From Eledone cirrhosa (Eukaryota): DNA of 64,000 nucleotides. The translations under genes were made by a program, and so were the position numbers. Every line of letters begins with the position of its first letter. Positions within the stretch are counted from its first letter, which is position 1. Positions 3,910 to 60,787 of this stretch are shown one piece after another. Below the pieces are notes generated by a model. The model was given only the letters and a program-made list of their open reading frames with translations, had not been told where the DNA came from and ran no database searches. The DNA lies in the NCBI GenBank assembly GCA_964016885.1, contig OZ024743.1, positions 191,766,001-191,830,000 on the forward strand, written 5' to 3'.

Positions 3910-4013
3910 GTCGGGGTCATACCTTTTCCTATCACCCACTCTACTACCCTAAGTATTAAGTACTCTGGTGCGTTATGGTCCACCTGGTTCCTTACCACAA
4001 TTCCCTCGTTATA

Positions 4014-4049
<36 letters not shown>

Positions 4050-4054
<5 letters not shown>

Positions 4055-7000
4055 AATTAAGTTAAAAATGTACATCTACATATGCATACTGAAATACTAG
4101 TGTGTATATGAATACACACACGTATACATATGTAGGTGTAACAAGTCTTTCACTGGTTGCTTTACTGTGAGCAGCCCAGCTATTCTGTATGTAAACACAC
4201 AGACAAACCGGTTTTTAGAGTCATACTGGTTTTCGGGGGAACACCTTCCCTCTATTCTCCAGAAAGCCAGACAAGGAATATTGAACTAGTTTCGTTGTTG
4301 TTACAACTCATCAGCAATATTTACCTATCTACCGGCCCTTCTGGTGAATTGTAAAAGCACATATCGTTATATGCTTTTTCTATGAAAATTGTTTAAGCGT
4401 CAGTCATACAAAAGTGAGTTACAAACGAAACGAAATTTAATTTCGTTTCGTTATTCGTTTTTATCGTCTCCGCTGAACCGGTGCGTACTCACACTCTATG
4501 CAAATTAGTCTGCCCACTACTACTTTTCATAGAAAAAGCATATAACGATATGTGCTTTTACAATTCTCCAGAAGGGCCGGTAGATAGGTAAATATTGCTG
4601 ATGAGTTGTAACAACAACGAAACTAGTTCAATATTCCTTGTCTGGCTTTCTGGAGAATAGAGGGAAGGTGTTCCCCCGAAAACCAGTATGACTCTAAAAA
4701 CCGGTTTGTCTGTGTGTTTACATACAGAATAGCTGGGCTGCTCACAGTGAAGCAACCAGTGAAAGACTTGTTACACCTACATATGTATACGTGTGTGTAT
4801 TCATATACACACTAGTATTTCAGTATGCATATGTAGATGTACATTTTTAACTTAATTGTTTAAGCGTCAGTCATACAAAAGTGAGTTACAAACGAAACGA
4901 AATTTAATTTCGTTTCGTTATTCGTTTTTATCGTCTCCGCTGAACCGGTGCGTACTCACACTCTATGCAAATTAGTCTGCCCACTACTAATTTTCATAGA
5001 AAAAGCATATAACGATATGTGCTTTTACAATTCTCCAGAAGGGCCGGTAGATAGGTAAATATTGCTGATGAGTTGTAACAACAACGAAACTAGTTCAATA
5101 TTCCTTGTCTGGCTTTCTAGAGAATAGAGGGAAGGTGTTCCCCCGAAAACCAGTATGACTCTAAAAACCGGTTTGTCTGTGTGTTTACATACAGAATAGC
5201 TGGGCTGCTCACAGTAAAGCAACCAGTGAAAGACTTGTTACACCTACATATGTATACGTGTGTGTATTCATATACACACTAGTATTTCAGTATGCATATG
5301 TAGATGTACATTTTTAACTTAATTGTTTAAGCGTCAGTCATACAAAAGTGAGTTACAAACGAAACGAAATTTAATTTCGTTTCGTTATTCGTTTTTATCG
5401 TCTCCGCTGAACCGGTGCGTACTCACACTCTATGCAAATTAGTCTGCCCACTACTAATTTTCATAGAAAAAGCATATAACGATATGTGCTTTTACAATTC
5501 TCCAGAAGGGCCGGTAGATAGGTAAATATTGCTGATGAGTTGTAACAACAACGAAACTAGTTCAATATTCCTTGTCTGGCTTTCTGGAGAATAGAGGCAA
5601 GGTGTTCCCCCGAAAACCAGTATGACTCTAAAAACCGGTTTGTCTGTGTGTTTACATACAGAATAGCTGGGCTGCTCACAGTAAAGCAACCAGTGAAAGA
5701 CTTGTTACACCTACATATGTATACGTGTGTGTATTCATATACACACTAGTATTTCAGTATGCATATGTAGATGTACATTTTTAACTTAATTGTTTAAGCG
5801 TCAGTCATACAAAAGTGAGTTACAAACTAAACGAAATTTAATTTCGTTTCGTTATTCGTTTTTATCGTCTCCGCTGAACCGGTGCGTACTCACACTCTAT
5901 GCAAATTAGTCTGCCCACTACTAATTTTCATAGAAAAAGCATATAACGATATGTGCTTTTACAATTCTCCAGAAGGGCCGGTAGATAGGTAAATATTGCT
6001 GATGAGTTGTAACAACAACGAAACTAGTTCAACATTCCTTGTCTGGCTTTCTAGAGAATAGAGGGAAGGTGTTCCCCCGAAAACCAGTATGACTCTAAAA
6101 ACCGGTTTGTCTGTGTGTTTACATACAGAATAGCTGGGCTGCTCACAGTAAAGCAACCAGTGAAAGACTTGTTACACCTACATATGTATACGTGTGTGTA
6201 TTCATATACACACTAGTATTTCAGTATGCATATGTAGATGTACATTTTTAACTTAATTGTTTAAGCGTCAGTCATACAAAAGTGAGTTACAAACGAAACG
6301 AAATTTAATTTCGTTTCGTTATTCGTTTTTATCGTCTCCGCTGAACCGGTGCGTACTCACACTCTATGCAAATTAGTCTGCCCACTACTAATTTTCATAG
6401 AAAAAGCATATAACGATATGTGCTTTTACAATTCTCCAGAAGGGCCGGTAGATAGGTAAATATTGCTGATGAGTTGTAACAACAACGAAACTAGTTCAAT
6501 ATTCCTTGTCTGGCTTTCTGGAGAATAGAGGGAAGGTGTTCCCCCGAAAACCAGTATGACTCTAAAAACCGGTTTGTCTGTGTGTTTACATACAGAATAG
6601 CTGGGCTGCTCACAGTAAAGCAACCAGTGAAAGACTTGTTACACCTACATATGTATACGTGTGTGTATTCATATACACACTAGTATTTCAGTATGCATAT
6701 TAAGATGTACATTTTTAACTTAATTGTTTAAGCGTCAGTCATACAAAAGTGAGTTACAAACGAAACGAAATTTAATTTCGTTTCGTTATTCGTTTTTATC
6801 GTCTCCGCTGAACCGGTGCGTACTCACACTCTATGCAAATTAGTCTGCCCACTACTAATTTTCATAGAAAAAGCATATAACGATATGTGCTTTTACAATT
6901 CTCCAGAAGGGCCGGTAGATAGGTAAATATTGCTGATGAGTTGTAACAACAACGAAACTAGTTCAATATTCCTTGTCTGGCTTTCTGGAGAATAGAGGGA

Positions 7001-7259
7001 AGGTGTTCCCCCGAAAACCAGTATGACTCTAAAAACCGGTTTGTCTGTGTGTTTACATACAGAATAGCTGGGCTGCTCACAGTAAAGCAACCAGTGAAAG
7101 ACTTGTTACACCTACATATGTATACGTGTGTGTATTCATATACACACTAGTATTTCAGTATGCATATGTAGATGTACATTTTTAACTTAATTGTTTAAGC
7201 GTCAGTCATACAAAAGTGAGTTACAAACGAAACGAAATTTAATTTCGTTTCGTTATTCG

Positions 7260-7266
<7 letters not shown>
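4050..7266 (+). mobile_element. Family A: HHR tandem array (retrozyme-like); 467-bp unit x about 6.2 direct (4387-7266) preceded by an inverted partial unit (4050-4390); flanked by (TA)n
   Basis: Exact 467-bp period, few substitutions between units, one HHR per unit, (TA)n at 4010-4050 and 7265-7324. Confidence 0.9.
4591..4635 (+). ncRNA. Type I minimal hammerhead ribozyme, family A (also at 5058, 5525, 5992, 6459, 6926; inverted copy 4277-4321)
   Basis: AATATTG-CTGATGA-GTTG(taacaa)CAAC-GAAAC-TA-GTT^CAATATT: stem I AATATTG/CAATATT, 4-bp stem II, palindromic AACTAGTT stem III. Confidence 0.88.
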
Positions 7267-7326
<60 letters not shown>

Positions 7327-8390: not shown

Positions 8391-8659
8391 TTTTGCACAT
8401 ATGAGTGGGCTTGTTACTGTCCGTAAAATTTATTAAATATTTAACATAGGCATGACATCAGAAGTTTTAGGAGAGGGGTTAGTTGGATCAAATCAACTCG
8501 GGTACTTAATGTGGAATTTATTTTATCAATCCAGGAAGGATAGTAGGTAAATTTGATCTCGGTAGCATATGAACTCAGAAGAGAAATAGCCCTAATAAAT
8601 ACCGCAAGGCATTTCATCAGACATTCTAACGATTCTGCCAATTTACCGTACTTAAATAA

Positions 8660-9050
8660 TAATTGTTTCTACTTTTGGCACAAGGCCAGCAATTACCCAG
8701 TACATTACTGGTACTTTATTTTATCGACCCCGTAAGGATGAAAGGCAAAGTTAACCTCGACGGGATTTGAACTCAGACCGTAAAGGGACGTAACTGTGCT
8801 GGAAAACATGGCGTCCAGCCCTTAATAATGGTTTCTGATTTAGATACAAGCCAACAATTTTAGGGGAGTGAAAAGACGATTAAATCGACTCCAGTGCATT
8901 TCTAATGCTGTATTTTATCGGCCCCGTAAGGATGAAAGGCAAAGCTAACCACGATTGGATTTGAGCTCAGCACGTAAAGGGCCGTAACTCTAAGACGCTC
9001 TACCGATTATGCAATATTGGTTTCTGATTTAGGCAGGGAAGCCGATTAAA
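8660..9050 (-). mobile_element. Two adjacent partial tRNA-derived SINEs
   Basis: Reverse-strand B box GAGTTCAAATCC, central GCCTTTCATCCTTACGGGGTCGATAAAATAAAGTACCAG domain, AT-rich tail. Confidence 0.85.
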
Positions 9051-9486: not shown

Positions 9487-9532
<46 letters not shown>

Positions 9533-9540
<8 letters not shown>

Positions 9541-9648
9541 CAACAGATTAAAGTTTAATAAATATTTGCTCTACGGTTCTTATATATTTGATATATATTT
9601 ATCCTTATCAAGTCCTCTTTGGATTTTAGTCTTCAAATTTATTATTAT

Positions 9649-9652
<4 letters not shown>
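9533..9652. mobile_element. Mini-insertion of the Naiad-type PLE (inverted 3'-end fragment plus 5' tail) in (TA)n
   Basis: 9533-9557 matches 38126-38150 directly; 9558-9652 is the reverse complement of 38035-38127. Confidence 0.85.
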
Positions 9653-9730
<78 letters not shown>

Positions 9731-9734
<4 letters not shown>

Positions 9735-11462
9735 ATAAATGCTCTGAAATAGCGATATATATGTGAATATAGACATAGAATATTCGAAAATATTCTGTAT
9801 GTTTATAATAAACATTTTGAAGACCTAATCGCTATAGAATAGAATACGTCACGTATTACAATTAGATTCTCGATAAAAGCAAGGGAAGTAATCTACGCGT
9901 TTCATTCTCGTTAGAAATCATCAGGACTACATATCCAGTGCTTTTATCGAGAATGACACAGCTAGAGACTTATAGAATACTTAGCTGTGTACAGGAACTG
10001 GTTTGAAAGAGCGGTTGCCGGTCCGGCAGAAATTAGAAATTGGAATAAATGCTCTGAAATAGCGATATATATGTGAATATAGACATAGAATATTCGAAAA
10101 TATTCTGTATGTTTATAATAAACATTTTGAAGACCTAATCGCTATAGAATAGAATACGTCACGTATTACAATTAGATTCTCGATAAAAGCAAGGGAAGTA
10201 ATCTACGCGTTTCATTCTCGTTAGAAATCATCAGGACTACATATCCAGTGCTTTTATCGAGAATGACACAGCTAGAGACTTATAGTTCCTGTACACAGTT
10301 CCTGTACACAGCTAAGTATTCTATAAGTCTCTAGCTGTGTCATTCTCGATAAAAGCACTGGATATGTAGTCCTGATGATTTCTAACGAGAATGAAACGCG
10401 TAGATTACTTCCCTTGCTTTTATCGAGAATCTAAATGTAATACGTGACGTATTCTATTCTATAGCGATTAGGTCTTCAAAATGTTTATTATAAACATACA
10501 GAATATTTTCGAATATTCTATGTCTATATTCACATATATATCGCTATTTCAGAGCATTTATTCCAATTTCTAATTTCTGCCGGACCGGCAACCGCTCTTT
10601 CAAACCAGTTCCTGTACACAGCTAAGTATTCTATAAGTCTCTAGCTGTGTCATTCTCGATAAAAGCACTGGATATGTAGTCCTGATGATTTCTAACGAGA
10701 ATGAAACGCGTAGATTACTTCCCTTGCTTTTATCGAGAATCTAATTGTAATACGTGACGTATTCTATTCTATAGCGATTAGGTCTTCAAAATGTTTATTA
10801 TAAACATACAGAATATTTTCGAATATTCTATGTCTATATTCACATATATATCGCTATTTCAGAGCATTTATTCCAATTTCTAATTTCTGCCGGACCGGCA
10901 ACCGCTCTTTCAAACCAGTTCCTGTACACAGCTAAGTATTCTATAAGTCTCTAGCTGTGTCATTCTCGATAAAAGCACTGGATATGTAGTCCTGATGATT
11001 TCTAACGAGAATGAAACGCGTAGATTACTTCCCTTGCTTTTATCGAGAATCTAATTGTAATACGTGACGTATTCTATTCTATAGCGATTAGGTCTTCAAA
11101 ATGTTTATTATAAACATACAGAATATTTTCGAATATTCTATGTCTATATTCACATATATATCGCTATTTCAGAGCATTTATTCCAATTTCTAATTTCTGC
11201 CGGACCGGCAACCGCTCTTTCAAACCAGTTCCTGTACACAGCTAAGTATTCTATAAGTCTCTAGCTGTGTCATTCTCGATAAAAGCACTGGATATGTAGT
11301 CCTGATGATTTCTAACGAGAATGAAACGCGTAGATTACTTCCCTTGCTTTTATCGAGAATCTAATTGTAATACGTGACGTATTCTATTCTATAGCGATTA
11401 GGTCTTCAAAATGTTTATTATAAACATACAGAATATTTTCGAATATTCTATGTCTATATTCA
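9731..11462 (+). mobile_element. Family B: HHR tandem array; 310-bp unit, inverted arm 9731-10284 (about 1.8 units) and direct arm 10285-11462 (about 3.8 units); flanked by (TA)n
   Basis: Units start at 10298, 10608, 10918, 11228; near-identical; one HHR each. Confidence 0.9.
10366..10408 (+). ncRNA. Type I minimal hammerhead ribozyme, family B (also 10676, 10986, 11296; inverted 9888-9930 and 10198-10240)
   Basis: GTAGTC-CTGATGA-tTTCT(aacg)AGAAt-GAAAC-GC-GTA^GATTAC; palindromic ACGCGT; outer 16-bp stem ATTCTCGATAAAAGCA/TGCTTTTATCGAGAAT. Confidence 0.9.
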
Positions 11463-12284
11463 TATATATATATATATTTGTGGTAATGTACAAATACTAT
11501 GGAACTTTAGCATACAGACCACTGGATAGCATATAATAAATCTGACATTATTCTTTATGATAAAAATTATGACAGCGTGTTAATTATCAATAAATCAACG
11601 CCACGTTACTATAATTTTGTGCAGAAGCGAGCTGGAAAGTAAAGAGATTACACGGCTCTAGCTGTTGAATGTAAATTATCTGTTGCGTTAAGGAATGTGT
11701 CTATCATTCCATTTATAATTGGTATAAACGGAGTGATAGACAACTGTTTCATGAAGGTCATTAACATTGACAAATTTTTGTATAAAATAAGAGAGATGCG
11801 TGCCAAAAATCACAATACTAGAATCTGTAAATGTTGTCAGGGCATTCTCATAGATTTGTTGTTAATCTTTGACGTTTGTGTTAACCTTGAGCAGTCTTGT
11901 TAAAATTGAATATTTCTATGCTTCTTCGCCAAGATGCACCTAATACTAGTCTTAAAAAGACTCATGATGTATTTCCCAAACCGTGGCGCATAAAAATAAA
12001 AATAAAAATAAACGGAAGTAGAAGGGAAACGGTGAAGGGCGCGACTTTCAGTAGTAAATAAAATATCTGTAAAACTAACATATGTATGAGCAGTGTTCAA
12101 TAGATCGATATCATAATAGCAAAATCTGATATTCATTATAAAACAACAATGTGATAGCCTTCCCTCTATGGATTCGACCTAAGAAGAGATGAGAACTAAA
12201 GTCAAAGGAAGACAAATGACAGAAATAGTTGTGCCAGTAGATATTTTAGTAAAACTAACTAGTTACTTAGCTTTAACTAATAAC

Positions 12285-27778: not shown

Positions 27779-30399
27779 TTCCAATCAGTTCCGCCTGTTT
27801 TGCAGGAGGGAATTAGAAAATGCATATTTCTGCATGCAATTTTAAAACCACACAACACGTATTTTGAATATTAGCAAAGCGATTTCTAGCAAATGGAATT
27901 CATTTTATGGCCATTTGGAAGAAATATTGCTGTGAGGTTTTTCCTTTTTGCTTGTTTATTTTGTTAGATTCTTTATTTTGTATTAGATCATTATTGCTTC
28001 AGTTAGTTTTGCTATAAAACTGTTTTAGTTGGCTAGATTTCCTTTTAGATTTATTGGACGGTTGTTCCCCTACCACCTTTGCTTTCATCTCTTTATGCCA
28101 TTGCATTTAGTTGGCCCAGTACACCAGCCTGATAAGAGCAGTAAAAATGTTAATCCCTCTACAGCTCTGAGGTACTTAACTGCAAATTTTGGACGTTAAT
28201 CTGATGGATATGTTTCTGTCTATCTAGGATAAAATTTCTAATTGAGCAGATGCCTATTCCCTATAGCTAAACTATGAAATGTAATTATTCGATGAACAAC
28301 GATATTCCACAATGGATTTGAACTCAATACCTTTGAGGTAGTAGTCAAATACCATAACATTTTCAACTACTTTGCATCTCTTATAATCGGTATATATACA
28401 CACCCTAAATTAGTCTCAATATACCGTAGTAGTCAATATGAATACTGTTTTGTTAAACAAGTCTTTCATCCAAATGCTTTTAACGTGTTCCGTATGAGCT
28501 GTTAGAAATGACAGAAATTGATTTTTGTGTAGACTATACCTGTATATTCAGTAAAGCTTTCATCAATAGGATCACCAAGAGAAAATTATGATTCAATGAT
28601 TGATCCATATCCCGTTTTTTATTTATTTTTGTTTGTTATTTACTCAATTCTCATTCGATTTGCTTGTAAATTTGTGATTAACAATCCCAAGATAATAAAA
28701 TAATAATTTTGTCCAAGCACAATGCTTCACATGTACAAAACAGAAGAAATGAGATTTATATCTGGAGAGCTCATTTACAATAATAAGGAAACATAAAATA
28801 TAAAATAGAAGAGATCGTCTGTGATCAGACCTGGAGAGGAATGGGCTCAGCCAGGTTTTAAATGACCAAGCATGACACTAAGGTGCGTTTACGACTCTAC
28901 TTGGTGTTACGTGAGTTATATAGCAATACATGCGCACAGTTTATTTGTCAGTCAAATAGCCAAAAAGCTATGTTTTTTTCTTGAATGTAATCTAGTGTCT
29001 GCTAGTACCGTTCCGTAACCTCTCTGCTATTCTGATCAAGTAGGACTGAATGAAATAGGCAATGGGTCAAACCAGTGAGTGTGATACACGTATGTTTCAC
29101 TCTAGATATATTATTCATCTGCCTTATCGAGTGTGATGCGGGAATCTGGGCAAGGTAGATAGCGCCAGCAACCACCTTTAAAATTCATAGGTAAAGGCTT
29201 TCAAATGTAAAAATATTGTATATCATTCGATATACAAACTTTACATACATGTATGCATACAGCTATGCCGTAGCGAACACCTTAATTCTGTTTCTTCTTC
29301 AGGCTGAACCAGCCTAAAAGCTACGTATGCAAATGAGGCTAATAAGCCTATATACATAGGCGTTAAGACTATGTTTGCGGCTTATTAAAATAAGCCGCAA
29401 ACATATAGTTTGAGGCGAGGTAAGAGTGCGTAAACTTCACAGCAGCCACACAGCCAGAAACAGCTGTCAGTTGCTTTCCCCTACTTGCTTCTGCTGGAAT
29501 AAGATAAGTGGACCCAGCCAACACCTTTAAAATAAATAGCTAAAGGCATATCAAATATTATTCAATATACAAACTTTACATGCATGTGTGTATGCAGCTG
29601 TGTTGGAGCGACACCTTAATTCTATTTCTTATATATATATATGTGTGTGGTTTTAGCGAGTGCGTGTTGTATAGTGTGCGGGTGTATATATAACAATACA
29701 CACATGTGGGGGGGGGGTCAGCCTGTCTGTCACAGGTCCCTTTGTGGTGGGAAATTAAAAAAAAAACAGAGCATCAGAGTATCAGTGATGGCTCTCAAAC
29801 AGGAACTTCTGGAAAATATGTGAATAAGTAATTTGTTCTCTCTTATTTTGTGGTGTGTGGGGGTGATTACATATTTAATTTGGCGTTAAATGTGTTAATA
29901 AATAGTTTTTCTTTATTTATTCTTTGCTGTTGAGTGAAGAAAAAAAAGAAAAACAGACCCTAAAATATATTTTCCGTGCTATTTCCAACTTCACCTTTTC
30001 CCTATATCCACTGTTTTGTATAGAACCTTACTTCCCTTTTCTAATATATATATATATATATACAGAGGTATCCACAGTAAGTTGTGGGGTCTATTCTGCA
30101 TGAAGAACTCGATGTAATCCATATGTTGAAAATTTTGTAGGTTAAGATAAATCCCGGAAAACAATTAAACATTAAAAGGAAAACAGAGTCATGATATAAG
30201 TTAAAACAATGAAATAAAATATCAAGTCATTAGAGATATACTTCACTGCTTTACGATCGTTCCTAGGTGATGATAATACATTGTAGCTATACTCAGTAAT
30301 TGATCTATGTAAGGTTAGTTACAAAATATCAGATAAAGAGAATATTTACTTACATGCATATCACCAGCTGTTTTCAAAACAGCTGGTGATATGCATGTG

Positions 30400-30548: not shown

Positions 30549-33161
30549 TGTCTGTGTGTGTGTGTCTGTGTCTGTGTGTGTGTGTGTGTATGGCATCGTG
30601 AGGTAAAGACCAGGACGGAGCGAGAAAAAATGGAATAGAGGAAGTGAAATGGCAGTGTAGCGCGCGCAGCCGGAAGGAGTGGTCAAGTCGAAAGAGTGGA
30701 AGAAGAGGGTGTTGACAGCAGGACATGTTTGTGAGAGGGAAGGGAGGAGGTAGTGCCCACAAAACAAAACAAGGAGGGAGAGAGCGATTGTGGCTACTAT
30801 GTGAGTGAGGGTTAGTTGGCTGTGTGTATACAGGCAGGTGTGTGTGGACAGAGGATGAGAGTAGCGTGTATATATGCATGTGTGTATGGAGGCATGTGTT
30901 TGTGTGTGTATAAAGCGTAGTGGTCATGCGAGGAGATATCGTCGGTGTGTGTGTGATAGACGCTGTGTATCGTTTTTTTTAATGGCTACATACACGTATG
31001 TAAGTGAATATACTGGTGTGTTTCAGGGTGTATGTGTGCGTGTGTGTGTTTCAGGGTGTGTGTGTGTGTGTGTTTCAGGGTGTAAGAGTGTGTGTCGTGT
31101 TTCAGGGTGCAAATGTGTGTCTGTGTGTGTGTGTTTCAGGGTGTGTGTGTGTGTGTGTTTCAGGGTGTAAATGTGTGTGTGAGGGCGTAAGTGTGTGTGT
31201 GTGTGTGTTTCAGGATGTAAGTGTGTGTGTGTGTGTGTGTTTCAGGGTGTAAGTGTGTGTGTGTGGTGTGTTTCAGGGTGTAAGTGTGTGTGTGTGTGGT
31301 GTGTGTTTCAGGGTGTAAGTGTGTGTGTGTGTTTCAGGGTGTAAGTGTGTGTGTGTGTGCTGTGTTTCAGGGTATAAGTGTGTGTGTGTGTGTGTGTGTG
31401 GTGTGTTTCAGGGTGTAAGTGCGTGATTGTTTTTGTAGTGTACGGAGGGAAATAACTAAACCAAGGTTGGGGTTCGAGACGTGCAGGGAGGAGTTAGTGA
31501 ATTAGAGGGGGACGGGTGGGAGAGAAAGAGGGGTGTTTGGATCTTTGAAATTAGTGCAGTTAGTGGTAGGTGGGGGTTATTAGTAGGTCAGTGTGGAGGT
31601 GAAGGAATACAGGAAGGTGCGAGTGGGTGGTGATGTGGGGCAGAGGGTAGTGTGTTAGTGAAGGGGTGGGTCAGTGGGTAGACGGTATGATGAGGGCAAA
31701 GGGTGTGTGTACGTTGTTGAGTGTGGATATGCGGAGTAGTGTAGTGGTGGTAGGTGTGGGTGGGAGGTTGAAGACAAGCGGAAGTGGAGTAGGTAGGTTT
31801 GTGAAGTTAGTGGTAGGTAGGGGTGGGCGTGGTCGGTGGTGGATTAGTGGTATCAGTCGTGAGGGGGCTAAAGGAAGAAAGTGTGGGGTTCAAACAGTTG
31901 GTGGTCCATGTCTGAATTCAGAAAATCGTCTGTTGCTCGGCGCTCAGTCGAGCATCTCGGGTTCCGGAGCACGCAATCAGGCTGCTGACGGTCATGTTGC
32001 GAGCGGAATGACCGGCTGAGCAGAAGTGTAGGGCGATGGGGGAACGCGTGCCGAGGCGGATGTCGTGGAGGTGCTCAGCGAACCGATCGGCCAAACGGCG
32101 GCCCGTCTGTCCGACATCAGTCGCACTGCACTGGGTGCAGCGGAGTCCGTAGATGAGGCTGGAGGAGGTGCAGCGAAAGGAGTGCCGGACAAGGAGGGAG
32201 TGGCCGTTGGGCCCCTGGAAGGTAGTGGTGTAAGTGATATGGGGGCATGTGTGGCAGCGGAATTGGGAGCAGGGGAGGGACACGGGGGAGGAAGAGTGGC
32301 TAAGAGGTAGGGAGCTACGGACGAGGAGGTTCCAGTGGTTGCGTGCGTGCTTGAAGGGGGGGGAGGGTTCGAGTCGGAAGACGAGGGATGTGGAGGAGTC
32401 TGACTGGAGGCGACGGAAGGGGCGTAGGAGAGTCCGTTGGGGGTAGGGTGGCAGGGTTGTAGGTGAGAAGGAAAGGCAGATGCTGGGTGTGGGGGCGAGG
32501 GTGTGGGGTGACGGTAGTGGTGCCGTGGACGGCGCAGGCGCGAGTGTAACAGCGTGGATAAGGGAGGAGGGGTAACCTCTCCGGGCGAAATGACGGACCA
32601 GAGAAAGGGTCTGGGTTTCAAAGAAGTTGGTAGTAGAGAATGGAGTGTTTGGTGGAAGTGGGATGGAGGGAGGTAAAATCGAGGTAGGAGTACGAGCAAG
32701 TACGTTTGAAGAAGGCGGAGGTGATGAGTGAGCGGTGGGAGAGGTCAATGGTGACGAAGATGTCCAAGAAGTGGTGGAGATGGAGGTGGTGAGTGAAGTT
32801 GAGGGAGGGATGGAAGGAGCAAAGGAATGAGAGAAAAGAGTCGAGATGCTCCTGGGTGAGAGTCGTGGCACCGATGCAGTCATCAATATAATGCCCGTAT
32901 AGTTCGGGAGTGGGGCTAGTGTATTGGGCAAAAATCTAGGCCTCAATGTGGCCAACGAATAGGTTGGTGTAGTGGGGCCCATTATTGTACCCATGGCTAC
33001 CCCGGTGACTTGCTGATAAAATTTACCCTAGAAGGAGAAGCAGTTGAGGGTGTGAACTAGCTCGGCGAGACGAAGGGGAGTGGAGGTGGAGGGGACGGGG
33101 AGGGACGATGGTCAATGTAGTGTTGGAGGGCGCGTAGGCCGTCAGTGTAGTGGATGGACGG
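30400..33161 (-). mobile_element. Degenerate GC-rich Penelope-like element (RT motifs at about 32850-33060, GIY-YIG to about 31900) with microsatellite-rich 3' region
   Basis: QVTGVAMGTIMGP, HYIDDC, ARRGYP, CSQFRCHTC, LIYGLRCTQC..VGQTGRRLADRFAEH; frameshifts; 5' end abuts TA at 33162. Left boundary uncertain. Confidence 0.85.
31015..31422. repeat. Minisatellite GTTTCAGGGTGT(AA)(GT)n, about 13 units
   Basis: Direct read. Confidence 0.9.
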
Positions 33162-33180
33162 TATATATTTATATATATAC

Positions 33181-33604
33181 AAATGAAAGTACAGCATAAT
33201 CGAAGCTCTGGCTGCAGCTAAGCTAACGAATGCAATCGGAATGTGCAGCTAAGCACTCAATAAGGTATTTTACCTTAGAGTGATGACATTACGTTTAGAC
33301 AGCTTTGCAAATTGAAGACAGCGACCAATAAGCCAGCCGCAGTGAGCAAAGCAACGAGAAAACTGACTCAGGAAAATATGACAAACGCGATCGTCCAGGT
33401 TTGTCATATTTTCCTGAGTCAGTTTTCTCGTTGCTTTGGTCACTGCGGCTGGCTTATTGGTCGCTGTCTTCAATTTGCAAAGCTGTCTAAACGTAATGTC
33501 ATCACTCTAAGGTAAAATACCTTATTGAGTGCTTAGCTGCACATTCCGATTGCATTCGTTAGCTTAGCTGCAGCCAGAGCTTCGATTATGCTGTACTTCC
33601 ATTT
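33181..33604. repeat. Fold-back element: 206-bp inverted arms, 12-nt spacer, in (TA)n
   Basis: 33181-33386 is the reverse complement of 33399-33604, with 2 mismatches seen. Confidence 0.95.
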
Positions 33605-34733
33605 ATATATATATATATATACAAATGGAATTTGTATATATATATATATATATATTTCCTCTTGTGACTTACGCATGTGCGTTTACTAACTTCTGCGTCA
33701 CTCACAAAATTGGTTACAGAGCAAAATTACCTGTTGATAACGTGATATTCCTTATTCGATCTTTATGCTGAAAGCTTATAGTTTTAAGCAGACAGTATTA
33801 TTGATTTAGGTGTCATAGAAACCCTACATTTGGATTTTACCACCAATTCCATTTGGCTCCAGGTCGGTTTTTATCATTTATTTTGTTTGACCTGTTTAGC
33901 TTGATTTGTTTTTTGGCTTAGGTGGTTAATGCCTTCTTAATTTAATATGGATTACCTTCGTGAAGATGAAAATATTAAGTCTTACTTCTCATGTTTGCAA
34001 ATATGATTTTATATATTAAATATACTTTAATATTAATCTAGATATCTATAAACCTTTATAGCCTGAAATATTATACATTTTGATTAATTCATTATTCTGA
34101 ACTAACATAAATAAATGATTTGAAATTTAGCGTTCAGCCGGATACGTTTGGATATATATAGTGTATATAATTAATTGTTAGTATATTTCTAATTAACTAA
34201 GAACTCGAAATTTACACCCAGATATATTTAATATTTAGATTGATGGATACCTCTAGATAATTCAATAATTCAAAAATTCGAGTTTACTCCTTCACAAAGC
34301 TATGCCTAAATGAATATTCATGTGTTTGTATAGATATATATAATTTTTGCATTATCTAATCACACCCTATTCATCCACGACAATACAAACCTCCCTCCCT
34401 GTGCTTTATACTATAAAAACTATTACTCCTTGTCTCTCTATCCTTGATCAATTCTCTTTTGCTTTCTATACTTCTAGTAACTATATTTTCTCCTCATCTG
34501 TTTCTCTCTGTCTTTCTTCTTTCTTCAATAATTTAAATTATTTGAATCTCTAACAGTTATGTAAATTGCTATTATGTATTTTTAAGCTTTCTCACACGCA
34601 CCCTCTGTATTATATGTAAATTTTTTCATGTCTCAATCTTAAGGTATATAAATATTGAGTGTTGTCATATCTTATTCACTACCGTGACTGAATCTTAACC
34701 ATCTACTATGTCAGCGTATGTCATGCATCATCT

Positions 34734-34800
34734 TATTTTATCTGAGGACGACGTACTGTTGAAGTTAGCTCAGTACCTCTGAAATATGTATAATAAAATA
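34734..34800 (+). ncRNA. Probable minimal hammerhead ribozyme at the 3' end of an AT-rich insert (33657-34823) bounded by (TA)n
   Basis: TATTTTAT-CTGAGGA-cgacGTACTG(ttgaagttagct)CAGTACctct-GAAATATGTATA^ATAAAATA. Confidence 0.65.
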
Positions 34801-34820
34801 TACTTGATCACACGATCATA

Positions 34821-34868
<48 letters not shown>

Positions 34869-35864
34869 TAAAATAACGGATTAAAGTTTAAGCAAAGAAT
34901 CGCTGCTTTCACACTTAACGGGATCTTCTGAAACTAACAAAGTCAATCTGTAAACGCAGACCTGGATATTTCAAAAAACGTTGCAACCGGAGGAAGACAG
35001 AAAGACGATACTTTGGTTCGTGGTAACGTTCGCTGGCAAAGAACGGGAAAAAACGAATAATACGTCATTAATAGGAGCGGTGAAAAACAATTACGCGCAA
35101 AGACAGAACCACGTTTATGGTATAAAAGAGGTCGTAGACTAATGTTCTCTTAGGTGGTGCATAGAGACGTTCTCTGGCAATGAACGAAAAAACGAAGATA
35201 ATAAGTCATATGTGGAGCGTAGAGAACAATAGTACGCAAAGACAAAACCACGTAAATGGTATAGCAGAAGTCGTAGACTAAATTCTAACTAGGAGACCAA
35301 ATGAATCTCCGCTACAGAGTTAAGAACAAAGTAAATAAATACAATACAGAAGTAATAGAAACAAATAAATACATACACGCAAACAGATACGTACATACAC
35401 AAGCATACGCAAAACTTTACCATAGGTATACAAAACCACGCACATATAAATATGTGTGTGTGTGTATGCTTGTGTACAAATAAATAAATAATTATATAAA
35501 CGTATATAAGTAAATAAATACGTATATAACAAGCGCACACGCATACCTACATATAAATACACGAATGCTCGGAGACGTAAGTCAACTAAAACAAGAAGTA
35601 CACATATACACACACCCACCATACGTACGAACCTGCATACTCACGCAGACGCAAAACTCCCGTATACACATAGCCAAACCCTAAATACCAGAATATGTAA
35701 AAATTATACGCCATAACAGTCAAATATACGTACGAGAAGGTATACATACCTTCACAAAACATACGGGTTATATATACTTACCTATGCAAATAAGTAAAGG
35801 AATAAACAAACAAATACTTAGCTCCCACATCAAGACGTAAAATATCCACGTATAGATCGTGCTA

Positions 35865-37991
35865 TCAGTTAGGGTATAACGTGGGGCTGTAATACAGGAA
35901 AGTTTTGTGCAATTTATGTTTACAAGCCGAAATTGCCTCAGATTTTTTGTTTAAGATGTGGTCTGTGGCGTAGAGTATTTCCAGGGCCTCAGCGGCGCAG
36001 AGGTCACATGGTCTTTTATTTCCGTTATACGATCTAGCCCTAGCTAGGATCTCCCAGTGTAACTTATATTTGGTGTGGTTGTCTTTTAGACTCCAGATAT
36101 AAGCTGAAAGTGACGTCATATTCCTTCTTAGAGGGTAACGAAAAGAATGGGTATGCATGTAAAGACGCTGCTTGAAACTATTGGCGGTTAACCCTATGTA
36201 GGCCCTACGGGACGTGGGTGTTACAACCTTACATTTGTAGACAATGTTACTAGAGAGGCATTTCCCGGATAGGGGGAAATCAGCCCGATTCCTACAATTA
36301 CAGTTAGTACTAACTACAGGGTTGCACGTGTTCCTACGGCTAGGTAGTTTAGCTAAATTTGAAGCTGTGATGTTATGTGCAAGGTTAGGAGTCGTAGAGT
36401 AAGAGATTTTAATAGTATTTCTATTAAAAATGTTACTATCTTTATGTGTAGGGGGAAAATGTTTCGTAATAAGGGAAAGAAAGATCTTAGCTAATGGTGT
36501 GGCCACCTCCATATTATATGGTGGGTTAAACCAACAAATGCGACGGGATCTATTTCTTCTAGGTCTATTTTCGTACTCTGTATATACTACCTTATCGACA
36601 AATCCACTTCGAGCAAGAGCTTCATTGAAATAAGTGGAATGGTCGTTGAAAATGCGCTCGTTGGTGGAAAGACGGGAAAGCCTCAACGAAACGTTTCTTA
36701 CCAGGTTCTTGGTTATGCTGGCAGGATGGTTGGAATGCTTACTTATGTAATTAAGCGTATCATTCGGCTTTCTATACGGGTAATACAACCCATTCAATAA
36801 ATTGAGGGTAACGTCGAGGTAATTAACGACCGAGAGATTGGCCTCAACCTGTATAGAGAGGTTGAAGCCTTTAAAGAAGGCTGTGAGTTCTTTTCTGAAC
36901 CTGTCGCAAGCACGAGGTCCGCACTTAGTCATGGTCAAAAGACCATCGTCACGGTACAAACCACCGCCTGCGTTGGGGAGTTCGTCCTTGATAGAGAAAA
37001 GAAGGAAAAGGCCAATAAGATCAGTAACCTCCGCAGAGTCACTGGCGCCCATACTCACGTCGAATGGGGTACTATTGGATTTTTTAATCCAAATAGAGTC
37101 GTCGAAATTAATCACCAACTTTCGGGCATTAAGAATGACATCAACTTCAAAATCCTTAACCACTGTGAGTGTTTTAGCGAAATTGATAGCTCTAAGGAGA
37201 AGTGGTAAAGTGATGGAGGAGTAGTAATTGTTGATGTCGAATTGGATAAAACGGCAATGTTCCTTGTTACATATGCCGTTGAACCAATCAATCACCGCGA
37301 AAGAATTGTTCCACAGTGCGAGAGGGGCCAAACTTCTAATTTCAGGTATAATTCTATCAAGAATCGTTTTACTAAGTCTACCTAAATCGGACTTCGTAGG
37401 GTTAATAAGCCGAATAGAGGGGTTGTTCGGAAAATTGGATTTGTGATCCTTCAGGGTAAAGTGGGGAGAGATAGGGTCCAGAGGTTCGGTCCGGTCCAGG
37501 ATGTTGAGATCGGATGTGATTTTAAACCCAGCATCGTTGATTTCATTGATGACGCACCGATTAGTTTTACGGTAATCCTTAGTTACAGCATTATGTAGTA
37601 GTTGATGGTAAGTACTGCGCTCCACTTGATATAGGTTGCCAGTTTTGTCGGAATGGACGTGCACGGCGTTAGAATCCTTAATAGAACGAGTTCTATTCTT
37701 CAGGTCTTGCTGGAAGGAATTGCTCCTATTCCGAAATTTGATATTCCGAATGAGTTCCAAAACATCATTTTCGAAGGGTAGCAATGCTGGGTTCCACGGA
37801 GGGTTATTATAAGTTTTAAATCCAAATTTATCCTGTTTGTTGTCTGCTTTTCGCGGATTATCGAAATAAAAGGCACGCCAACGCAACCTTTTAATGAACG
37901 CGTCTGTTTTCTGTATCAGGAGTTTTAGGTATGTTTTCCTGCTTGGTACGGGTATGTTCTTTGTAGAAATATTCAGATGTTGTTTCTGCAT
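35865..37991 (-). CDS. PLE reverse transcriptase plus C-terminal GIY-YIG endonuclease, 708 aa
   Basis: STKNIPVPS..KRLRWRA N-terminus, DKTGN, RLINP, QFDINNYY, MGASDSAE, LYRDDGL, NYLDV, CNC..PLSGKC, IVYKC..YIGLT, CDLC, NKKSE. Confidence 0.93.
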   Translation of the reverse strand: MQKQHLNISTKNIPVPSRKTYLKLLIQKTDAFIKRLRWRAFYFDNPRKADNKQDKFGFKTYNNPPWNPALLPFENDVLELIRNIKFRNRSNSFQQDLKNRTRSIKDSNAVHVHSDKTGNLYQVERSTYHQLLHNAVTKDYRKTNRCVINEINDAGFKITSDLNILDRTEPLDPISPHFTLKDHKSNFPNNPSIRLINPTKSDLGRLSKTILDRIIPEIRSLAPLALWNNSFAVIDWFNGICNKEHCRFIQFDINNYYSSITLPLLLRAINFAKTLTVVKDFEVDVILNARKLVINFDDSIWIKKSNSTPFDVSMGASDSAEVTDLIGLFLLFSIKDELPNAGGGLYRDDGLLTMTKCGPRACDRFRKELTAFFKGFNLSIQVEANLSVVNYLDVTLNLLNGLYYPYRKPNDTLNYISKHSNHPASITKNLVRNVSLRLSRLSTNERIFNDHSTYFNEALARSGFVDKVVYTEYENRPRRNRSRRICWFNPPYNMEVATPLAKIFLSLITKHFPPTHKDSNIFNRNTIKISYSTTPNLAHNITASNLAKLPSRRNTCNPVVSTNCNCRNRADFPLSGKCLSSNIVYKCKVVTPTSRRAYIGLTANSFKQRLYMHTHSFRYPLRRNMTSLSAYIWSLKDNHTKYKLHWEILARARSYNGNKRPCDLCAAEALEILYATDHILNKKSEAISACKHKLHKTFLYYSPTLYPN

Positions 37992-38144
37992 GATGAATAT
38001 AAGTCAGTAGAGTGCTCAACCGAAGGAGCCAAATAGTAATAATAATAAAATTGAAGACTAAAATCCAAAGAGGGCTCGATAAGGAAAATATATATCAAAT
38101 ATATAAGAACCGTAGAGCAAATATTTATTAAAATAACAGATTAA

Positions 38145-38195
38145 AGTTTAAGCAAAGAATCGCTGCTTTCACCCTTAACGGGATCTTCTGAAACT
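38145..38195 (-). ncRNA. Hammerhead-like motif with variant core in the pLTR (second copy 34885-34935)
   Basis: Minus strand: AGTTT-CAGAAGA-tCCC(gttaa)GGGt-GAAAGCAG(cgattct)TTGCTT^AAACT, with distal CAGATT/AATCTG pairing. Confidence 0.6.
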
Positions 38196-38334
38196 AACAA
38201 AGTCAATCTGTAAACGCAGAACTGGATATTTCAAAAAACGTTGCAACCGGAGGAAGACAGGAAGACGATACTTTGGTTCGTGGTAACGTTCGCTGGCAAA
38301 GAACGGGAAAAAAAAAAATATATATATATATATA

Positions 38335-41405: not shown

Positions 41406-41754
41406 AAATATATATATATATATTATATATAATCTCTCTATTTTCATTTACATTTATATATATATATTATATATATATAATCTCTCTATTTACATTTATA
41501 TATATATATATATATATAAGCTGAGAATATATATATATGAAAATAATCAGGATCCCGACAACTGAGCTCCGGCCTTTTCGACGGGGGTCCTGACTCTTTT
41601 CCTATTACCCACTCTACTACCCTAAGTATCTTGTATCTTTCCACACCTTTTTTGTTATATATATATATATATATTTTTTTTTTTTTACTCTTTTACTCTT
41701 TTACCTGTTCCAGCCATCCAGCTGAGGCCATGCTGGGGCATATATATATATAGT

Positions 41755-41946
41755 AACAATTGTTTCTACTTTAGGCACAAGGCCAGCAATTACCCAGTGC
41801 ATTACTGGTACTTTATTTTATCGACCCCGTAAGGATGAAAAGCAAAGTCAACCTCGGCAGGATTTGAACTCAGATCGTAAAGGGACGTAACTATGCTGGA
41901 AAGCATGGCGTCCGACCCTCTACCGATACTGCCAATCCACCGCCCT
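41755..41946 (-). mobile_element. Full-length tRNA-derived SINE (about 190 bp)
   Basis: A box TGGCAGTATCGG, B box GAGTTCAAATCC, central domain, end GTAGAAACAAT. Confidence 0.9.
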
Positions 41947-41957
41947 TATATATATAT

Positions 41958-42110
41958 AGTAATAATAATAAATGTGAAGACTAAAATCCAAAGAGGGCTC
42001 GATAAGGATAAATATATATCAAATATATAAGAACCCTAGAGCAAATACAGAAGATCTCGTTAAGGGTGAAAGCAGCGATTCTTTACTTAAACTTTAATAT
42101 GTTATAAATA
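41958..42110. mobile_element. Second mini-insertion of the Naiad-type PLE (tail plus inverted 3' end) in (TA)n
   Basis: 41958-42047 matches 38035-38123; 42048-42110 is the reverse complement of about 38123-38190. Confidence 0.85.
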
Positions 42111-42156
42111 TATATATATATATTTAAAGGAATAGAGGTGTAACACACAAGTTATG

Positions 42157-42369
42157 ATATATTGGTAAACGGAAAAGAAAATGCTGACAAATTGTTCACA
42201 GTGAAAAATAGTTTAATTAGGAATAAGTGAGAATTAGTAATAGTATTGGTTAGTATTCAGTTTTGGTTTTAAAACTGAATACTAACCAATACTATTACTA
42301 ATTCTCACTTATTCCTAATTAAACTATTTTTCACTGTGAACAATTTGTCAGCATTTTCTTTTCCGTTTA

Positions 42370-42378
<9 letters not shown>
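42157..42378. repeat. Perfect fold-back: 108-bp arms, 6-nt spacer, next to (TA)n
   Basis: 42157-42264 is the reverse complement of 42271-42378. Confidence 0.95.
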
Positions 42379-42432
<54 letters not shown>

Positions 42433-46890: not shown

Positions 46891-47849
46891 GCAGCGTGCA
46901 AACGTGTATATATAACTAAATAATACTGTTTAACTACATGCAGTTATACATAGATGTGTGTTGAATTTGTGTATGTGTGAATGTGTGTGTGTGTGTTATA
47001 TACGTGAGTATATCTATATGTATATATGCTTGTATGTATACGTCCAATAATGTTGTTTATTATCATGCAGTTATCGATATGTGTGTTAATGCAAAATGCG
47101 AGTGCTGTGTGTTTTTCTGTATGTGTATGCGTCCAATGTATGTATACGTCCAATGAATATACATCATCTCTTATAAAGAAATAATGCTGTTTACCAGCAT
47201 ACAGTTATAGATGCGTGGGTTAATGCAAAATGCGAATGCTGTGTGTTTTTGTATACATATGTATATGTTTTGTATACGCATATACATATATGCGTATGTA
47301 TATATTCGTGTATATATGGATATATGTATGTATACGTTCGTTGAGCCTGCATCATTTTGTGAACATTAAGCTTTAAGCTACGACTATTAATTTAGCTACA
47401 AACACCATTATGCCACTTCCATGTGATGGCGCCATTGTAGTCTCTTGCCAACGGTGTCCTGTCCGTGTGCTTAACTTCACACGCTACCGAACCGGACAGA
47501 CAGAAATCCAAGTTATTATTGAAAATATCGATATAATCGAATACGTGGCATGCATCCTTGATGCGTAAACTAACACACACTAAAACCTCTCCATACACCA
47601 CACAAAATTGTATTATGCTGTGTGTTAGATTGCATTTATACAGTACATTGCACATATACACTTTACGATTCTAATTTATACTACTACTGCTGCTGCTACT
47701 ACTACTGCTACTACTACTACCTCAACCACTACAACTATTAATACTACCACCATCACCACACCATCGCCACCACCCTCACCACCACCACAAACACCATCGA
47801 CGCCACCAACACCACTGCCGACACTACTACTACTGCTACTAATAATAAT

Positions 47850-48038
47850 AATTGTTTCTACTTTTGGCACAAGGCCAGCAATTATCCCAGTACATTACTG
47901 GTACTTTATTTTATCGACCCCGTAAGGATGAAAGGCAAAGTAAACCTCGGCGGGATTTGAACTCAGATCGTAAAGGGACGTAACTATGCTGGAAAGCATG
48001 GCGTCCGACCTTCTACCGATACTGCCAATCCACCGCCC
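47850..48038 (-). mobile_element. Full-length tRNA-derived SINE; tail runs into trinucleotide repeats at 47679-47850
   Basis: Near-identical to 41755-41946. Confidence 0.9.
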
Positions 48039-48449
48039 TAATAATAATAATAGTAATAGTAATAATACTTTTAAAAACACACTCTACTGCATTTCACGCT
48101 GATCAGAAAGCATTACATTTCTCTGGGAAATCACAAACTGAAAATGTCATCTAAATTTATATCATAGAACATTTACGCATAGAAAAACAAAATTGACTTA
48201 AGCATAGAGAAGGAGGTCAGTATGATAATGTTGAATAGCATCCTGACGGTCACTCCTATTATACTTTGGAGATCAGGATGCAAGAGCTTTTTTTGTTGTT
48301 GTTTTTTACATATTAACACATATGTAGTCTTCAGGAGAAATCTGTTTAGAGTTTCATTATTTTCTTACAGTGAACTTACAGTGTTCCTTGCTACTTATGT
48401 ATATATTATGTGTTGATGTCTTTCATATAACATCAACAACAGCTGCAGT

Positions 48450-52294: not shown

Positions 52295-52702
52295 ATAATG
52301 GTTTCTGATTTAAGCAGAAAGTCAACACTCTTTGGGGAGGGGAAAGTTGATTAAATCGACCCCAGTACGTTACTGGTACTTTATTCTATCAACCCCGTAA
52401 GGAAGAAAGGCAAAGCTAACTTCGAAATGTAAAGGGCCGTATCTGTATGCCGCAAAGCATAATGTCCAATGCTCTAACGATACTGCCAATCCACCGCCCT
52501 TTCGCTGCTATTACTATAATTGTTTCTACTTCTTGGCACGAGGCCAGCAATTACCCAGTGCATTACTGGTACTTTATTTTATCGACCCCGTTAGGATGAA
52601 AGGCAAAGTTAACCTCGGCGGGATTTGAACTCAGACCGTAAAGCTGCGTAACTCTATGCTGCAAAGCATGGCGTCCCTCTACCGATACTGCCAATTCACC
52701 GA
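52295..52702 (-). mobile_element. Two tandem tRNA-derived SINEs
   Basis: Same family motifs as 41755-41946. Confidence 0.85.
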
Positions 52703-53570: not shown

Positions 53571-54696
53571 CTTATATATAAATGAAAGTTCTTGATTCTG
53601 TGTATCCACCTAAAACTCAAAAATTATCGATCGGTCTCCCACAAATTTACATATATATATTCACTACATCACGAGACAAATAGTCGTAATAGTTGGTTTA
53701 CTTTACAGAGCTTTGAGCAATAAGGAATCGGACAATACTTGCATAACAGAAGGAGTGGCAATGGCTCTTGGTTGGGGTTTCAGACAAACTCTGGCAGTAA
53801 TTTCTCGGGGGGACCCGAGCAGATCAGGTTAATGCCTGCATGTGTTGGTGAGTTTGCTATCCAGCTACTCAAATTGCAAAATGGACTTCTTGAAAAGGAT
53901 TCCAAAGACCGGATTCCGTTGTTATTTGCTCATATAATTAAACTGGAATAGGAACTGATTAACAGAATATTTCCAAACATTCAGATCAGACAATGTGATC
54001 CCAAATGACTGTGAACGAGTAATCTTAACACTGAAAATTGTTGCTGTGAAAGAAACCAACAGAAAGTTACTGGATATGTTATCAGGAGAGGAAAAATGCT
54101 ACAAATCAGTTGACACAGTCATTTCCCAGGACCAGGTTGTAAACTATCCAACTGAAGATTTGAACAGCCACAAACTGGCAGGAATTCCTACACACACACT
54201 GAAGCTTGAAGCATCGGTTATGCTATTTCGTAATCTAGATCTTCCAACACTTTGCAATGGTACAAGACTCATCATCAAAAATATGATAGCCAATGTCCTA
54301 GAAGACGCAATCATGTCAGGAAAATTTGCTGGTGACAATTATTTCATTCCCAGAATACCTCTGAGGTCAACTGATTTGCCATTTGAATTTCAAAGGCTTC
54401 AATATCCTATCAAATTCAGTTTTGAGAGCAATCATTGAAAGTCTTTGGGTTGAACCTGACAGATCCTCTCTTTTCACGTGGTCAGCTTTATGTTGGTAGA
54501 ACAATGTTGTTTATCCAGAGGATTTAGAATATAAAAGTATCTGAACAAGATAATATCGTAATTCCTACTGCAATGATAATAGACATAGATACTAATTCCT
54601 TAGTCATATAGTTTGTAAGGAATTCTGAAGTCCTAACTTTACTGCATAATGTTACTTTGGGAGGATACGCAGACATCCCCAGGTACCTCTGCTATA
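53571..54696 (+). mobile_element. Internally deleted Helitron carrying a PIF1-like helicase C-terminal fragment (about 53950-54500)
   Basis: MLFRNLDLPTLCNGTRL, FIPRIPL..DLPFEFQRLQYPIK, FSRGQLYV; 5' TATATATAAATGAAAG; 3' CAGGTACCTCTGCTA resembling the other Helitron's end. Confidence 0.8.
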
Positions 54697-55124: not shown

Positions 55125-55745
55125 AAGTTTACTTGGTGAGGAGGGTGATTTTGGACACCCTGCAAGACAAAAAACAAAACCTGACAAAGGGCGGAAGAAC
55201 TCATAAGAGTCAACGGCCATCCAAAAGTGTGTAGATATGTATATACACATGTACCGCACGGTTAAACCACTGGGGGTGAAGGACCCCTAGGCTTTGTCAG
55301 GGCGTTCTTCTAGGAGAAGGCAACTCAGGAAACTGGGATAACTCCGATATAAAACCTGCGGCTCAGTGGTTACCGATAATGTTGATCTTTTCTTCTTTTC
55401 GGGTTATAGCCACTGTCGCTCAGAGAGTGGGATTGGTTCAGTGCACAGTCTTTCCTCACTTTAAAAAATATTTTCATGCACAGGCATTGCACGATAGAAT
55501 TAATTAATAACTATTAATTGTTTCTACTTTAGGCACAAGGCCAGCAATTACCCAGTGCATTACTGGTACTTTATTTTATCGACCCCGTAAGGATGAAAGG
55601 TAAAGTCAACCTCGGCGGGATTTGAACTCAGATCGTAAAGGGACGTAACTATGCTGTAATTAATAATTATTAATAATGGTATATCATGCAATGGCCATAC
55701 TCGATAACGAGGGGGCAGCCATCATACATGTGTGTATGTTTCTAT
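55125..55745 (+). mobile_element. Short non-autonomous (TATG)-tailed element interrupted by a minus-strand SINE (55515-55660)
   Basis: Ends shared with 24150-24660; SINE motifs inside. Confidence 0.55.
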
Positions 55746-56321: not shown

Positions 56322-56355
<34 letters not shown>

Positions 56356-60742: not shown

Positions 60743-60787
60743 ATTATTGTTATTATTAATATTATTATTATTATTATTATTATTATT

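Follow-up and report, generated by a model that had tools for sequence, protein, structure and literature searches.

The insertions of PLEs have a standard form, an inverted arm with an optional tail of 30-40 bp (PMC8557442; PMC3846280), and a 34-bp repeat is reported in PMC2377424. Both strands are cut and extended by the PLE protein, for which a dimer is predicted, and in vitro RT begins at two internal sites that bound the tail, with no need of homology or of HHR cleavage (PMC11167929). Retrozymes have been proposed to be non-autonomous derivatives of PLEs (bioRxiv 10.64898/2026.07.22.740005), a tie that the earlier literature, as far as its available text goes, argued from co-occurrence and phylogeny. 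The locus described here would add to this a footprint at the level of the insertion itself, gene-less HHR arrays moved by PLE proteins. In the open-access literature I found nothing on the tails of retrozyme arrays (older subscription work on Penelope structure may overlap) and nothing that combines Penelope, twin priming and pLTR. A term search of the available text found 'tail' 0 times in bioRxiv 10.64898/2026.07.22.740005 and 'inverted' 0 times in PMC7229834.

Three head-to-head arrays and their neighbors

The window (the whole stretch of DNA analyzed, 64,000 nucleotides) is repeat-rich eukaryotic DNA with numerous microsatellites. In it lie three arrays, A, B, and C, of ORF-less tandem repeats that carry an HHR, each with its arms head to head and set in (TA)n. 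The units are 467 nt (A), 310 nt (B), and 466 nt (C) long and 63-66% A+T. Since the arms are head to head, both outer ends are 3' ends in the ribozyme sense. Unit positions are numbered from the HHR cut site; S is the upstream end site and T the downstream one.

The inverted arm of array A (4050..4390, minus strand, 341 nt) runs from unit 361 to S at unit 234 and has one HHR. Its long arm (4387..7266, plus strand, 6.17 units) runs from unit 226 to T at unit 303 and has six, with predicted cuts after 4628, 5095, 5562, 6029, 6496, and 6963; the two arms have 4 nt in common at the junction. The tail is the 69 nt between S (window 7197) and T, 7198..7266 on the plus strand. Array B consists of a T-ended arm (9729..10285, minus strand, 1.80 units; T at unit 165, 5' stop at unit 229) and an S-ended arm (10284..11462, plus strand, 3.76 units; S at unit 130, 5' stop at unit 204), the latter with a 13-nt duplication, or stutter, at the junction. 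Array C has a T-ended arm (15934..16800, minus strand, 1.86 units; T at unit 310, 5' stop at unit 376), a jumped piece of 43 nt (16802..16844, plus strand, unit 269-311) whose 3' end is T plus 1 nt, a base in common, and an S-ended arm (16844..17592, plus strand, 1.61 units; S at unit 250) whose 5' stop, unit 436, is the first base of the HHR core.

The target repeat joined by the outer ends, all six of them, is (TA)n around A (4010-4051, 7264-7324) and B (9652-9730, 11462-11477) and degenerate (TA/TG)n around C (15650-15936 and 17596-18719). The sequence-only reading had named an inverted pLTR and a short 3' extension as features that PLE insertions often have. Both are described in PMC8557442 and PMC3846280, and all three arrays have both, an inverted 5'-truncated arm and a tail on one end. 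Unit copies differ by 9 events in about 3.2 kb of A, by 1 in B, and at 3 sites in C, so the inserts are young. One variant is common to two non-adjacent A units and another to 3/4 C units. The only frames of at least 100 aa that overlap C are of low complexity, none overlaps A or B, and no ORF with RT and GIY-YIG lies within the three arrays.

A minimal type I HHR with full core, stem I, and palindromic stem III is present in 7 copies in A, 6 in B, and 4 in C, one C copy being an exception that lacks the 5' strand of stem I. Rfam at its gathering score gave no match in the window; below the HH9 cut-off of 52, A scored 38.6 bits and C 18.5, and B was absent among the matches listed. Rfam matches to miRNAs at the E-value level were set aside as hairpins of the TA repeat. 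Judged by their sequence, A, B, and C look like non-LTR retrozymes that insert in the manner of PLEs. No convincing match was found between them and the ends of the elements D, E, F, G, H, and I in the window, and the one high score, of the 3' region of D against C, was discarded as TA-rich low complexity.

All the ends claimed in the sequence-only reading are there, allowing for the 1-3 nt common to unit and (TA)n. Those of A, said to be about 70 nt apart, are offset by 69 nt, and those of B, said to be about 35 nt apart, by exactly that; 9731, given for one end of B, is the last base that can be assigned to the unit alone, and 9729 is the last that matches. The offset in C is 60 nt. Joint chance for three offsets of at most 70 nt is 0.04, and small offsets by themselves are weak evidence. 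The reading was also right that no end falls at the HHR cleavage site. The nearest of the six is 130 nt away, and the idea that the HHR cut sets the ends is rejected.

That the ends of C are homologous to those of A, a further claim, holds to within 2 nt if positions are anchored on predicted helices; by alignment it depends on the aligner. A pairwise aligner matches the short ends exactly and shifts the tail end by about 7 nt, and MAFFT matches the tail ends exactly and shifts the short end. The units themselves are homologous (identical in 302/435 aligned columns, with a local score of 167 where 200 shuffles reached at most 46), and the chance that both ends of C would fall on A/T positions homologous to those of A is 2e-4 to 1e-3, depending on the tolerance. 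B is not clearly a homolog of A or C by sequence: the whole unit scores within the range of shuffles, and the tail module gives P=0.04 and 0.08. The end of B at 11462 lies just before an (AT)4 run of its unit and, if one mismatch is allowed, reaches 11471; it may therefore have been primed by homology. The two-ended pattern of A, B, and C is real and more than chance.

How general is it? By eye I picked out 8 head-to-head inserts flanked by (TA)n, belonging to six families, a set that may be incomplete; not counted, for want of (TA)n flanks, are the short palindromes at 29370-29405 and 30352-30398. The ends are offset in 6/8 and flush in 2/8. The counter-examples, without tails, are E (33180-33603) and mini-E (33622-33634), whose four ends agree within 1 nt. 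Insert F (42124..42378) has a tail of 33-39 nt on its left arm only. Thus of the proposal that each array has two fixed, offset termini, the offset stands for A, B, and C and fails as a general rule. Since A, B, and C are each known from one locus, their ends are shown to be fixed across families and not within any of the three. A search of the masked 64-kb window for further copies returned only TA-rich low-complexity matches, and the A/C motif had 0 matches in contigs of bacterial and archaeal genomes.

Family D supplies what A, B, and C lack, more than one locus. Its main copy (34861..38313, minus strand) is a partial tandem, apparently of a full-length, autonomous PLE, with an open frame of 712 codons (35865-38003), RT motifs, and GIY-YIG at the C terminus; its 3' end is at the short site, 34861, in (TA)n. 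Two head-to-head fragments exist, D9 (9535..9654; left arm ending at the short site, right arm tail alone), whose adjoining (TA)n holds array B, and D42 (41956..42115; left arm tail alone, right arm at the short site). On a common reference the tail end is 308 in both fragments and the short end is 220, 215, and 208-220 at the three loci, i.e. within 12 nt, which makes a tail of 88-100 nt (about 90). The motifs of D are RWR at 38, DKT at 116, YRDD at 347, VY..YIG at 585-601, CxxC at 663, and CxH near 690, and its Atlas neighbors bear GIY-YIG and RVT_1. The Hydra clade is described as having a C-terminal GIY-YIG and RWK, DKT, CxxC, and CxH motifs (PMC8557442). D fits most of this and is probably a Hydra-type PLE by its sequence motifs; its linker has Phe for the last Cys of CxCX5C. 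Pfam scans of the PLE frames found nothing significant in 4/4 and 3/3 proteins, a PDB sequence search with D found 0, and a homolog search gave 509 relatives among 8000 scored, with no informative name among the 120 matches listed. Hydra elements are reported to carry an HHR (PMC8557442); a relaxed scan and Rfam found none in the ends of D.

An older, diverged partial tandem, J (29137..29630, plus strand, period about 355), came from a motif scan with 9 matches, 8 of them in A and C, where 0.87 are expected per window by chance. Only the 3' half of an HHR is recognizable in it, it has an internal 36-nt palindrome (29370-29405), and its link in sequence to A, B, and C is weak (P 0.03-0.12).

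Other elements share the window. PLE-type inserts lie in chains along common (TA)n (D9 with B, 9504-11477; D42 with F, 41947-42431; E with mini-E), suggesting that the same microsatellites are used repeatedly. A 5'-truncated PLE (19907-21263, minus strand) lies between (TA)n runs; it has the GIY-YIG part of an ORF at 20364-21263 and, some 217 nt from its 3' end, a minimal HHR (20158-20130). A broken PLE-like ORF with RT- and GIY-YIG-like motifs (31420-33160, minus strand) enters on its 3' side a GT-rich tandem repeat (31016-31406) and not (TA)n. The HHR at 34742-34822 (plus strand, stem I of 8 bp), about 30 nt before (TA)n and adjoining the 3' end of D, probably marks where another PLE, element I (33656-34822), ends. 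A dispersed repeat of 150-220 nt, 85-97% identical and SINE-like in size and copy number, occurs at 8625-8822, 26881-27074, 41750-41971, 47835-48065, 52504-52701, and 55502-55659. Two related non-LTR retrotransposon copies with endonuclease- and RT-like frames occupy 56322-64000, coming after (ATT)n runs at 56322 and 60743. By their motifs I take 24661-25660 to be a decayed LINE-type RT fragment and 53959-54438 to be a fragment resembling a PIF1/Helitron helicase. A unique segment of 150 nt (21689-21840) lies inside a long degenerate (TA)n tract.

A predicted RNA module, the junctions, and the template

A, B, and C, I infer, are ORF-less, non-autonomous repeats with an HHR, of the kind called non-LTR retrozymes, inserted by a PLE protein acting in trans. 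The two sites S and T appear to follow predicted RNA structure instead of microhomology. The predicted layout is common to the three: a helix P1 closes a junction that holds a hairpin P2, a U-rich linker, and a hairpin P3, and is followed by P4. P2 is optional, predicted in A and C; in the tail of A the 5' strand of P1 begins at 7216 and P2 occupies 7226-7254. S is 5' of P1 by 19 nt in A, 21 in C, and 19 in B, and T is 5' of P3 by 6, 6, and 12 nt, respectively. With P2 looped out, the tail of A shrinks from 69 to 39 nt and that of C from 60 to 38 nt, beside 35 nt for B. The end of J in (TA)n is 5 nt before a P3-like hairpin, a place similar to that of T in A and C, in a predicted module with counterparts of P1, P3, and P4.

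These structures come from energy models and 2-4 sequences, too few for covariation, and the helices were picked after the ends had been seen. In monomer folds the mean pair probability across A, B, and C is 0.80-0.96 for P1, 0.50-0.93 for P3, and 0.92-0.98 for P4. In dimer folds P1 and P3 of B are divided between pairing within and between units, and monomer folds were used for that reason. Against shuffles the module has z-scores of -5.95 (A), -2.47 (C), and -2.16 (J). The module of B alone folds no better than shuffles (z -0.80), nor does the tail of family D (z -0.97), in which no stable fold that would shorten it was found. RNAalifold on A and C only lost P1 through misalignment, and the 4/24 compensatory pairs that it gave are not counted as evidence.

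I propose the following course of events. A source array would be transcribed into a multimeric RNA that stays uncleaved. A PLE protein, RT joined to a GIY-YIG endonuclease, would nick both strands of (TA)n and start cDNA synthesis internally on the RNA, at S or T, with pairing of no more than 1-3 nt, as happens in vitro with another PLE. The folded module would fix the two sites, S 19-21 nt 5' of P1 and T in the U-rich linker 5-12 nt 5' of P3, and the optional P2 between them would lengthen the tail from about 35-39 to 60-69 nt. The cDNAs on opposite strands would then be joined head to head by 1-4 nt of microhomology, giving the outcome seen in the sequence, one end at S and one at T. The last step is the least sure: often both cDNAs would come off one RNA, the downstream cDNA stopping where the upstream cDNA had started and the upstream cDNA running on to a common 5' point. 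The HHR cut would play no role in setting the ends. I consider it probable that two structure-set start sites are used on opposite strands, and plausible, if a little short of probable, that the two cDNAs come from a single RNA by twin priming.

Twin priming makes a statement about junctions, and these the sequence-only reading had missed. By junction gap I mean how far one arm's 5' stop lies from the point where its partner arm starts, negative if the two overlap. It is -9 in A, where the T-ended arm stops at unit 226 and overlaps S by 9 nt (chance 0.045), -7 in D9, and -3 or +9 in D42; in the two D fragments the T-ended arm is the tail alone, stopping at S. LINE-1 twin priming leaves overlaps with a median of 12 bp (PMC12016303), and A, D9, and D42 have the layout of LINE-1 twin priming. 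The S-ended arm of B stops 38 nt short, outside that geometry. In C the S-ended arm has a gap of 125 nt and then jumps to T, with an overlap of 42 nt; that the internal jump should land on T+1 has a chance of 0.013, calculated post hoc. The arms of E, mini-E, and F overlap fully, which does not fit. Over the 8 inserts the fit is clean in 3, partial in 1, open in 1, and absent in 3.

The other point that had been missed is a third position common to the arrays, a 5' stop. One arm in each of the three stops 58-66 nt past T, within P4 (A 361-365, C 376, B 229), a coincidence with A that has a chance of about 0.07 each for B and C. One reading of the shared stop is a linear transcript's 5' end, another is a stall. 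The initiator consensus is YYANWYY. It is matched at A361, C373, and B205 and not at B229, in units that have 6, 7, and 10 matches, so that the matches at the 5' stops are suggestive only. About 25 nt before the common stop A and C have kept ATGCAAAT (4498-4512, 16348-16362, 17224-17238), which I take to be octamer-like. The sequence doubles as the 5' strand of hairpin P4, and a role as promoter and one in RNA structure are therefore indistinguishable here.

The template need not have been one linear RNA. The same start sites could have been used on self-cleaved circular monomers, by rolling-circle RT, or on one RNA per arm, possibly with growth by crossover, and everything said above of start sites, module, and head-to-head joining is compatible with this. 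Coral, mussel, and axolotl have abundant retrozyme circles (PMC7229834), rolling reverse transcription has been proposed for PLE tandems (PMC4209133), and local amplification has been proposed for arrays (bioRxiv 10.64898/2026.07.22.740005); the fully overlapping arms of E and F suit two templates. A common stopping point for one arm in 3/3 arrays speaks against a circle, which lacks a 5' end; a stall in P4 could account for this, though arms pass through P4 in every internal repeat. The variants common to non-adjacent A units and to 3/4 C units would moreover require later conversion if the template were a monomer circle. Had the long arms grown later by unequal crossover, as they may have, junction positions modulo the unit would be unchanged. 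Such templates are a possibility, one that I would not favor.

The proposal of linear uncleaved RNA has a stronger form, offered tentatively: inverted pLTR and tail would be the product of one event, in which a dimeric protein, working from both strands of (TA)n, would twin-prime one linear, uncleaved RNA at sites measured from P1 and P3. If this is true, animal retrozyme arrays are direct cDNA copies of linear multimers and not products of a rolling circle, which raises the question whether transposition passes through retrozyme circles at all, and the P1/P3 module is a portable, ORF-free signal for PLEs to insert several kb. The module would be a candidate for what sets RT start sites and would give a reason for the longer tails, and junction geometry makes the formation of PLE inverted repeats and tails testable.

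DNA cuts, microhomology, and artefact

Defined ends without homology would also be explained at the level of DNA, if the PLE endonuclease resolved an intermediate by two staggered cuts in the element. I think this unlikely. The offsets vary (35, 60, 69, and about 90 nt), and those of A, B, and C converge on 35-39 nt after subtraction of P2, which would suit a ruler of RNA. In PMC11167929 genomic ends coincide with measured RT start sites. Finally, the internal template jump of C to T is the kind of event expected of a polymerase.

The sequence-only reading had two priming points on opposite target strands, guided by T/A microhomology to (TA)n. The first half has held up, fitting PMC11167929 and recurring in family D at three loci in the window. 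The second is weaker. Microhomology with the flank at the six ends is 2, 3, 1, 2, 1, and 3 nt, adding up to 12 where chance would give 6.3 (P=0.10). In C, alternation of T and A over at least 8 bases is found at 8 positions, in tracts of up to 11 nt, and none was used. With a sum that is not significant and long TA tracts that C left alone, microhomology is rejected as the selector of sites.

One might go further and hold that the ends are not fixed at all, (TA)n primers annealing to any A/U-rich RNA and the concordance being due to chance or to bias in alignment. All six ends do have at least 1 nt in common with the flank (P=0.02), the B end at 11462 adjoins the longest AT run of its unit, the short ends of D vary by up to 12 nt and its tail end falls in ATT-rich sequence, and the aligners disagree on the ends of A and C. 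Against this, the concordance of A and C has a P of at most 1e-3, the alternating tracts of C were passed over, the tail ends of D are identical at two loci, the four ends of E and mini-E are within 1 nt, and T was used again inside C and is matched in J. Primers free to anneal anywhere are highly unlikely to have produced this.

It is barely credible that the inverted arms are artefacts of assembly or library (fold-back reads) or palindromes of the breakage-fusion kind: assembly is indeed difficult where inverted repeats lie next to long (TA)n (PMC8557442) and the arms are >99% identical, but the flanks beyond (TA)n differ between the two sides, the arm ends are unequal and defined, the junctions have microhomology, stutter, and a jump, arms next to a junction lack each other's variants, and the layout recurs in eight inserts of six families.

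Comparison with known systems

The tail is already known for PLEs; what is new is its presence on ORF-less retrozyme arrays. A, B, and C resemble Penelope/Poseidon, Naiad, Hydra, and Neptune in the inverted 5'-truncated arm, the optional tail at one end only, the (TA)n target, and the lack of a readable target duplication. They differ from these PLEs in having no ORF and in being arrays of many units. Compared with the 30-40 bp published for PLE tails, B (35) is inside the range, A (69) and C (60) are outside in linear length, coming to 39 and 38 if the predicted P2 is removed, and D has about 90 nt.

The nearest parallel in mechanism is Poseidon of Anolis (PAc), which, like A, B, and C, has two internal sites that bound the tail, uses both strands, needs no homology, and leaves the HHR cut unused. 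The sites of PAc are in an AC-rich stem-loop inside the start of the ORF (PMC11167929), whereas T of A, B, and C is in a U-rich linker, part of what is predicted to be a three-way junction in non-coding RNA. The available text of PMC11167929 does not tie the two PAc sites to the inversion junction.

Non-LTR retrozymes (PMC7229834; bioRxiv 10.64898/2026.07.22.740005) are like A, B, and C in size (310-467 nt), in G+C (<40%), in their tandem type I HHR, in the absence of an ORF, and in occurring together with PLEs. The retrozyme papers rest on HHR type, co-occurrence, and pLTR phylogeny and favor circular intermediates or local amplification, whereas the case made here rests on the ends of insertions, and the junctions of A, B, and C lean towards a linear multimer.

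With LINE-1 twin priming, in the account of PMC12016303, the likeness is in the two opposite cDNAs and in the small overlap or gap at the point of inversion. LINE-1 starts from its poly(A) tail and from scattered internal places. In A, B, and C poly(A) is absent, and each of the two starts is at a set internal site.
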